A DNA stretch of 29,308 nucleotides from positions 1-29,308 of the forward strand of contig JAZDHK010000030.1 in NCBI GenBank assembly GCA_043806035.1. Direction: 5' to 3'. The notes under the pieces were generated by a model. It did not search any database, was not told where the DNA came from, and saw only the letters and a list, made by a program, of their open reading frames with translations. Positions within the stretch are counted from its first letter, which is position 1; each line of letters opens with the position of its first letter. The DNA comes from an archaeon (GTDB taxonomy: Archaea > Nanobdellota > Nanobdellia > Woesearchaeales > UBA9642). This document shows, in pieces, positions 1,630 through 1,810 of the stretch. The position numbers and the translations under genes are program-made.

Positions 1630-1769
1630 TGGGGATGCAGGGATTTGAACCCTGATTCTGCGGTATCTTCATCCTTCACGGATATATACTAACACTTCTC
1701 TCATCGGCCGAAGCCTCGACGCTCCAGTTGCTGGAGCCGCATGTCCTAGCCTGGTTAGACTACATCCCC
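1630..1769 (-). tRNA. trnW: tRNA-Trp(CCA) with a 66-nt intron at 37/38 (exons 1769-1731 and 1664-1630); CCA end not encoded
   Basis: Acceptor GGGGATG/CATCCCC-A; D stem GTCT/GGAC; anticodon stem TGCGG/CCGCA with loop CT-CCA-G|A; T arm CAGGG-TTCAAAT-CCCTG. Confidence 0.95.
1665..1730 (-). ncRNA. tRNA-Trp intron; putative circularly permuted box C/D guide RNA for Cm34
   Basis: CTGGAGC (1727-1721) is antisense to tRNA nt 31-37; D'-like TCGA (1719-1716); GGC-TTCG-GCC stem; C'-like ATGAGAG (1704-1698); D-like GTGA (1679-1676); C-like ATGAAGA (1672-1666); the D+5 rule lands on C34. Confidence 0.72.
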
Positions 1770-1796: not shown

Positions 1797-1810
1797 TTTA
1801 AAAATATTCC
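1797..1810 (-). promoter_or_regulatory. TATA box of the tRNA-Trp gene
   Basis: Minus strand GGAATATTTTTAAA ending 27 nt before tRNA position 1. Confidence 0.6.

Follow-up and report, generated by a model that had tools for sequence, protein, structure and literature searches.

Does the intron of the tRNA-Trp gene in this reduced-genome member of the Woesearchaeales guide the methylation of its own tRNA, and if so, which form of the RNA does the work: the unspliced pre-tRNA or the excised and ligated circle? Box C/D guides are held to require two kink-turn motifs for accurate methylation. The pre-tRNA-Trp intron guides of euryarchaea have the box order C-D'-C'-D, and the one in Pyrococcus acts in cis. 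The first-pass annotation of the window (the whole 29,308-nt stretch of DNA that was analyzed, which is contig 30 of a 1.5-Mb genome in 42 contigs, 93.7% complete) had read this intron as a circularly permuted C/D guide with two motifs that becomes complete only when the intron ends are joined.

Rfam finds one tRNA within the window, on the minus strand at 1769..1630 (RF00005, 48.5 bits, model positions 1-71). It is a tRNA-Trp(CCA) gene that ARAGORN misses with its default settings and reports as tRNA-Trp(cca) with a 66-nt intron when introns are allowed (aragorn -i). The 5' exon (1769..1731) and the 3' exon (1664..1630) flank an intron at 1665..1730 in the canonical 37/38 position, so that intron nucleotide n corresponds to window position 1731-n; all features described below lie on the same minus strand. 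The G37/A38 junction matches the intronless relatives L012 and L020. Of the range 1665-1737 that had been assigned to the intron, only 1665..1730 belongs to it, and the remainder is tRNA nt 31-37. A TATA-like TTTTTAAA lies at 1797..1804, some 31 nt upstream of tRNA nt 1, and the 3' end of the tRNA is followed by a T-rich stretch; the gene, whose TATA-like element was read by eye, probably has its own promoter. The intron itself reads CAACUGGAGCG-UCGA-GGCUUCGGCC-G-AUGAGAG-18 nt-GUGA-AGG-AUGAAGA-U, with its elements in the same linear order as in the earlier reading of the sequence.

The 5' part of the intron combines a guide region (intron nt 1-11; 1720..1730) with a kink-turn. The CUGGAGC core of the guide (1727..1721) pairs with tRNA nt 31-37, GCUCCAG (1731..1737, G31 to G37), a target strand that is guide-paired in the minimum-energy fold, and C34 (1734) is faced by the G at 1724, the fifth nucleotide upstream of D'. 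The D'-type box UCGA (1716..1719) provides the non-bulged strand of the kink-turn. It is followed by the C-stem hairpin GGC-UUCG-GCC (1706..1715) and by the C'-type box (1699..1705), which supplies a GAU bulge, a GA, and then a G and an A that pair with the C and the U of UCGA. The parts of a kink-turn are thus all present: a GGC/GCC stem, a GAU bulge, GA opposite GA, and then G-C and A-U pairs. In RNAfold, the anticodon arm with the intron forms the guide-target hairpin, a GUAU:AUAC pairing, and a 3' hairpin (-27.0 kcal/mol).

Since the boxes of this intron are short and non-consensus (UCGA, AUGAGAG), they could in principle be chance matches within an ordinary intron, a reading on which the related introns bear directly. 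A BLAST search of 41 relatives gave matches in 20 genomes, and a covariance model of the pre-tRNA, searched in 151 genomes of the order, matched in all 151, other tRNAs included; three of these (G129, G138, and G149) are counted only in this tally and contribute no sequences. The sample covered about 190 genomes of the order and comprised 30 loci plus 90 further best-scoring places. Sequences were parsed by script, with some intron boundaries hand-picked from the listed candidates, and other tRNAs, as well as loci unreadable to both parsers, were removed ahead of the counts. The final set consists of 126 unique tRNA-Trp anticodon-arm sequences, 9 of them intronless and 117 with an intron. Many relatives (L092, L101, L108, L111, L112, L118 to L124, L128, L129, L133, L134, L148, and L149) have tRNA-Trp genes that, in addition to the guide intron of the anticodon loop, are interrupted by one or two more introns, located in the D arm, the variable region, or the T arm. 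Two pattern scans of metagenomes yielded no close relatives of the intron studied here: the first returned no matches, and the 12 loci returned by the second were 9 tRNA-Trp genes of other lineages and 3 chance matches in coding DNA.

To count as complete, the module had to comprise an antisense element in register with C34, an NNGA box at a distance of five bases, a hairpin with 2 bp or more, a 3-nt bulge, and GA. It is present in 108 of the 117 intron-bearing tRNA-Trp sequences, all from Woesearchaeota-type archaea of the same order. The other nine comprise two with a K-loop (the same boxes around a stemless loop), three with the antisense element alone, two with neither element, and two (L125 and L141) in which the kink-turn is kept and the antisense element, judged by eye, is degenerate. 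The D-type box is NNGA in 108/108 (AUGA in 70, CUGA in 16, and UCGA in this genome only), and the bulge is GAU in 67 of 95. The 4b-4n pair covaries with the first letter of the box (U-A 59, G-C 11, A-U 6); it is paired in 77 of 108 introns, compared with 53 on average and 64 at most among 2,000 shuffles, a test that overstates the significance because the sequences are related. The G-C and A-U pairs of the intron studied here agree with this pattern. The C-stem varies in sequence among the relatives and also covaries, its second base pair being C-G (47), G-C (26), U-A (9), A-U (9), or U-G (4), and there is covariation between tRNA nt 31 and guide position 2 (G-C 82, C-G 3, G-U 3). The guide duplex is 6 bp long in 58 and 7 bp in 38 introns (96 of the 108 with the module), and 2 to 7 nt separate guide from target in 93 of 95. 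A class-wide sample, which added 31 sequences and reached into other orders, showed the module in 19 and neither element in 6. Two introns in tRNA-Met(CAU) genes (L150, genome G064; L146, genome G166) share the guide-D'-hairpin-C' module, and in them, too, C34 lies opposite the fifth base.

Because the same guide-to-box spacing recurs in 108/117 introns, the identification of the 5' guide and kink-turn module as real and above chance is solid. Conservation together with covariation rules out a chance origin of this module and makes it extremely improbable that the motifs as a set are accidental. Three proposals of the first-pass annotation are hereby upheld: the pairing of CUGGAGC with tRNA nt 31-37; the position of the fifth base upstream of UCGA opposite C34, in a register shared by 108/117 relatives; and the D'/C' kink-turn with compensating G-C and A-U pairs, whose layout recurs in 108 relatives with 4b-4n covariation. 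Judging from these sequences, the intron probably contains a box C/D-type guide that directs methylation of C34 in its own tRNA.

The 3' third of the intron is a different matter. Downstream of C', the introns fall into classes, among them those with short tails, mostly with GG at positions -6/-5, and those with long tails (at least 20 nt; n = 43). Short tails pair with the 5' leader. Long tails contain a 5-mer, composed of GGU and the complement of the last two intron bases, that pairs with those two bases and with A38-C39-C40. Of the 43 long tails, 34 have this second antisense element, in five pair types (2,000 shuffles gave 11.7 on average and 21 at most), and its GGUNN ends 11 to 13 nt after C' in 31 of the 34. 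The long tails also contain a hairpin of variable sequence with compensatory changes, such as UUGAAGC/GCUUCAA to UUGGAGC/GCUCCAA in L095, and finish with GAAGAN at the 3' end. The intron studied here follows the long-tail plan: GUAU, then UAUCC-GUGAA-GGAUG, then GAAGAU. The GUAU (intron nt 42-45; 1686..1689) is a weak second antisense element that ends 12 nt past C', pairs with A65-U66-A38-C39, and matches 4 of the 5 bases of the element in the relatives. UAUCC-GUGAA-GGAUG (1670..1684) is a plain hairpin in RNAfold, at a position equivalent to that of the covarying hairpin in relatives. GAAG (1670..1667) is a strand of the splicing helix, lying opposite C35, C34 (a mismatch), U33, and C32 in a bulge-helix-bulge that, examined by eye, has three of four pairs (C32-G, U33-A, C35-G, with C34.A unpaired) and a weak outer helix, which would make it a relaxed form of the archaeal motif, a 4-bp helix with two flanking 3-nt bulges at the splice sites. 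The GAAGAN ends, at window positions 1666-1670 and in relatives (59/108), place an A opposite C34, whereas the short-tail class uses GG there. A paralogous intron of 52 to 64 nt occurs in the tRNA-Gln(UUG), tRNA-Gln(CUG), and tRNA-Lys(UUU) genes of this genome (C4:15636-15773, C24:2692-2825, and C40:1642-1766, respectively); it forms CAACUG..CAGUUG and GGGCU..AGCCC hairpins, and its 3' ends GAAG/GGAG match U34/C34.

It is in this 3' third that a second C/D motif had been proposed, GUGA-AGG-AUGAAGA, forming a K-loop that would make the ligated circle, and only the circle, a complete two-motif guide. Its box D, GUGA (1679..1676), sits inside the loop of the UAUCC-GUGAA-GGAUG hairpin; of its box C, AUGAAGA (1672..1666, within 1665..1672 together with the final U), the "AU" belongs to the hairpin stem and the "GAAGA" is the near-universal 3' terminus, whose pairing with the anticodon loop serves splicing. 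A spacing of 3 nt between boxes is typical of K-loops, and the intron studied here, alone among its relatives, has such a well-spaced K-loop. The box order and the arithmetic behind the 12 nt between AUGAAGA and UCGA after end-joining (1 + 11) are correct; the distance from GAAGA to D' across the joined ends is 11 nt in 36 and 12 nt in 14 of 59 relatives that end in GA, so that 12 nt is not unique, although 50 of 59 fall within this range. Also in favor of the circle, GA is kept at -6/-5 in 59 of the 108 module-bearing introns despite the A that it places opposite C34, and the genome encodes the RtcB ligase. The literature lends further support: two motifs are reported to be needed for site specificity in vitro (PMC1635284), and Nanoarchaeum equitans has permuted C/D sRNAs that require circularization (PMC3491384).

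Comparison with the relatives, however, weighs against the second motif. Among 46 introns with GA at -6/-5 and a tail of at least 12 nt, a partner GA at K-loop distance (4-9 nt upstream) is found only in the intron studied here and in L070. The members of its own family, g2 and g3, have short tails in which the second motif is absent. The hairpin that contains GUGA in its loop and the "AU" of box C in its stem is conserved in relatives as a plain helix. C' and GUGA are separated by 18 nt, where canonical guides have spacers of about 12 nt; in the second motif, 4b-4n would be G.G; and a 7-bp guide is short for action in trans. A box D following the second antisense element was not found in the relatives, which have GUYN at this place, not NNGA. 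A second kink-turn in the long-tail relatives was considered and rejected, since the candidate matches sit inside the covarying plain helix. The second C/D motif is therefore not supported, with its GA partner in 2/46 introns and its location in a hairpin loop that corresponds to a plain covarying helix in relatives; to judge from the alignment, the 3' third is composed of the second antisense element, a plain hairpin, and a strand of the splicing helix, and chance is the best account of the GUGA "box D." The conservation of boxes and antisense elements expected in the first pass thus holds for the 5' module (108/117) and fails for the GUGA/AUGAAGA pair (2/46). The idea that splicing and ligation are needed to build the guide likewise found no support, given that the second antisense pairing is possible only before splicing. 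Accordingly, we consider it quite unlikely that the intron is a circularly permuted two-motif C/D RNA, and we regard with the same skepticism a broader version, in which the 3' end of the whole GAAGA-ending class (59/108) is a degenerate box C, the hairpin replaces the terminal stem, and the ligated circle is a two-site guide. Were the circular form the guide, a functional RNA would include the splice junction, and nature would provide in this intron a circularly permuted C/D RNA.

The explanation that we favor, and hold to be probable on balance, is a box C/D-type guide with a single kink-turn that would act in cis on the unspliced pre-tRNA and methylate C34. From the elements, their conservation, and their covariation, we infer protein binding, methylation, action in cis, and an order of events. 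The intron would have one C'/D'-type kink-turn, with the antisense element immediately upstream of its D-type box, and this element would fold back onto the adjacent anticodon loop while the pre-tRNA is still unspliced (7 bp with a 3-nt loop). L7Ae would bind the kink-turn, after which Nop5-fibrillarin would methylate C34, which faces the fifth guide position, at its 2'-OH. Later, GAAGAU would pair with the anticodon loop to form the splicing motif. Methylation would precede splicing because the guide pairing and the splicing motif cannot form at the same time. In L054 and L091, which are minimal introns, the 3'-terminal GAAGA doubles as the C' box; there, kink-turn and splicing helix rule each other out, and this would likewise place methylation ahead of splicing. 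The pre-tRNA, rather than the circle, is the likely working form because the second antisense element pairs with the intron end and exon nt 38-40, a pairing that exists only before splicing. Circularization would be a by-product on which the guide function does not depend, and the guide probably does not need it.

Published work points both ways. Pre-tRNA-Trp introns are reported to guide methylation of C34 and U39 (PMC4090602, PMC7714728). A reduced single-site C/D complex, the "hemi-complex" of Hardin and Batey, 2006, in which one K-turn is able to place the substrate, is active in vitro, but with loss of site specificity (PMC1635284), which counts against a guide with a single kink-turn. 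The C/D-free and monopartite guides of Wang, Yang, and Ye, 2022, engineered RNAs in which plain stems can replace C/D motifs in Nop5 binding and still place the Nop5-fibrillarin substrate (PMC9670817), suggest by analogy that the hairpin after the second antisense element could play the role of such a stem. All of these C/D-free, monopartite, and hemi-complex RNAs are synthetic, whereas the introns described here are natural and widely conserved, with the substrate covalently attached.

There are points against a single kink-turn acting in cis. It leaves unexplained both the retention of GA at -6/-5 (A opposite C34) in 59/108 introns and the 11 to 12 nt from GAAGA to D' across the joined ends in 50/59. 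The K-loop of the intron studied here is correctly spaced (GUGA, 3 nt, AUGAAGA), and its second antisense element matches the relatives in only 4/5 bases. Finally, the Nop5 of this organism lacks the N-terminal fibrillarin-binding domain.

The protein complement deserves a closer look. The sequencing runs listed as containing this DNA are three DNA runs of a single study, with no RNA run among them. Genes for fibrillarin (249 bits), Nop5 (156 bits), and L7Ae (107 bits) are present, as are those for the splicing endonuclease EndA and for RtcB; the presence of fibrillarin and Nop5, which the first-pass annotation had named as a check on its proposal, is confirmed, and L7Ae is found in addition. 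The nearest named matches of the fibrillarin are from "Candidatus Woesearchaeota" metagenome-assembled genomes, with at most 57% identity. The 238-aa Nop5 (C9:7118-7831; L028 1495-2211, minus strand) is encoded between a KH-domain gene and the fibrillarin gene. It aligns solely to residues 134-371 of Pyrococcus Nop5 and for this reason appears to have no fibrillarin-binding N-terminal domain, which is present in the Nop5 of the relatives G053 and G028. In tblastn searches with these two Nop5 sequences, only the C-terminal part was found in the 93.7%-complete genome, and no N-terminal domain. The NOP5NT model (PF08156) has no match in this genome, although it also misses archaeal Nop5 in control genomes. 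Across 40 sampled genomes of the order, the stop-to-stop frames that encode Nop5 are 246 to 425 aa long, and several lineages may share the truncation. The RtcB match (C1:79600-82308) is split into two parts, model positions 1-50 and 48-426, separated by about 450 codons within one 974-aa open frame; the interruption is probably an intein. Two strict regular expressions for canonical two-motif C/D sRNAs gave zero matches in this genome and also zero in shuffled sequences, the scans being crude. A regular expression for other kink-turn hairpins gave 53 matches, compared with 34 to 56 in shuffled sequences, and thus no enrichment.

The absence of the fibrillarin-binding domain from Nop5 suits a purely structural role, in which the kink-turn would be an L7Ae-binding element that aids pre-tRNA folding or the timing of splicing without any methylation. 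The competition between kink-turn and splicing helix for the same bases in L054 and L091 would fit such a role as well. However, the distance between the base facing C34 and the D-type box is fixed at five in 108/108 introns, which counts against it because such a ruler serves methylation and would be unneeded for mere L7Ae binding. In addition, fibrillarin has been retained, and its gene adjoins nop5. We consider this role very unlikely.

Another possibility is that the excised intron, linear or circular, serves as a single-kink-turn guide in trans on other pre-tRNA-Trp molecules or on spliced tRNA-Trp, perhaps with two half-mers sharing a Nop5 dimer. There are published precedents for both ideas: in Haloferax, methylation of pre-tRNA-Trp is reported to be trans-acting and the circular intron to be stable (PMC3326292, PMC4090602), and half-mer ribonucleoproteins, with two RNAs per Nop5 dimer, have been crystallized (PMC6239191). 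Nevertheless, the complementarity is limited to 6 to 7 bp and does not extend into nt 38-41 of the spliced tRNA (the leaders are UCA, UAA, ACA, etc.), and the second antisense element requires the unspliced junction. A short guide duplex located 2 to 7 nt from its target suits a hairpin in cis better than pairing in trans, and we regard action in trans as unlikely.

Among the closest known counterparts of the proposed single-kink-turn guide is the euryarchaeal pre-tRNA-Trp intron guide of Haloferax volcanii and Pyrococcus abyssi, which resides in the same host gene at the same intron position. In both, the antisense element for C34 lies upstream of a D'-type box, another antisense element is directed against the region of nt 39 and the 3' junction, and the guide pairing competes with the splicing motif. 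Unlike the euryarchaeal guide, the introns described here lack both a 5'-end box C and a box D past the second antisense element, and thus have one kink-turn instead of two; their D'/C' pair is closed by a real hairpin, and the guide begins 2 to 3 nt past the splice site. Canonical archaeal box C/D sRNAs share with these introns an internal C'/D' motif whose guide faces the target with the fifth base upstream of D', as well as the core proteins, but possess a terminal C/D kink-turn that was not encountered here. The tRNA-Trp intron of Sulfolobus solfataricus is described as a 65-nt stable circle without consensus boxes that has two 7-bp complementarities, to positions 34 and 39 (PMC3326292). 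It resembles the present intron in its two antisense elements against the same two regions and in its degenerate boxes, whereas the Woesearchaeota-type introns keep a clear kink-turn.

Within the DPANN group, the 66-nt tRNA-Met intron of N. equitans, which contains a single box D, a mutated box C, and a GC hairpin, has been proposed to be a C/D guide (Randau, 2012; PMC3491384). Like the intron described here, it interrupts a tRNA of a DPANN archaeon and combines one D/C pair with a stable hairpin, but it is located in another tRNA. The same source describes sRNA24 of N. equitans, a permuted C/D sRNA in which box D precedes box C in the gene and the order is restored by circularization, with the circle demonstrated by inverse RT-PCR. 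It is a precedent for the circular reading of the present intron; sRNA24, however, is a free-standing gene with two recognizable motifs, whereas here the second motif is unconserved and the circle is a predicted one.

One tRNA-Trp intron has its parts in the opposite order. In G214 (L233 1539-1618), which belongs to the same class but to a different order, the parts run GGUAU (the element antisense to the 3' junction), G, CUGA, a loop of 8 nt, G-AUGAUGA, 7 nt, and CUGGAGC, with no D' thereafter. Its sole kink motif is thus D-loop-C, the fifth base upstream of the consensus CUGA faces C39, and CUGGAGC lies 7 nt downstream of the consensus AUGAUGA. Its family mate G262 (L234) has the usual order, and rearranged forms of these introns hence do exist. 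This intron, with a single motif in the D-loop-C order and the C34 antisense element downstream of box C, speaks for the circular reading.

Guides in tRNA-Trp introns (PMC4090602, PMC7714728, PMC3326292), the single-box-pair tRNA-Met intron of N. equitans, and circular and permuted C/D RNAs are already known. A conserved one-kink-turn tRNA-Trp intron guide in DPANN archaea is not described in the literature that we searched, a body that leaves most subscription papers and supplements outside; the nearest case there is the intron in the tRNA-Met gene of N. equitans. The differently arranged related introns, one of them D-loop-C, provide material on the evolution of guide RNAs inside introns that pass through a circular stage. 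A natural one-kink-turn RNA that is tethered to its own substrate and conserved in more than 100 families of archaea with tiny genomes would be a test of the minimal RNA architecture required by the methylation enzyme, and a guide function would offer a reason why such reduced genomes retain a long tRNA-Trp intron.
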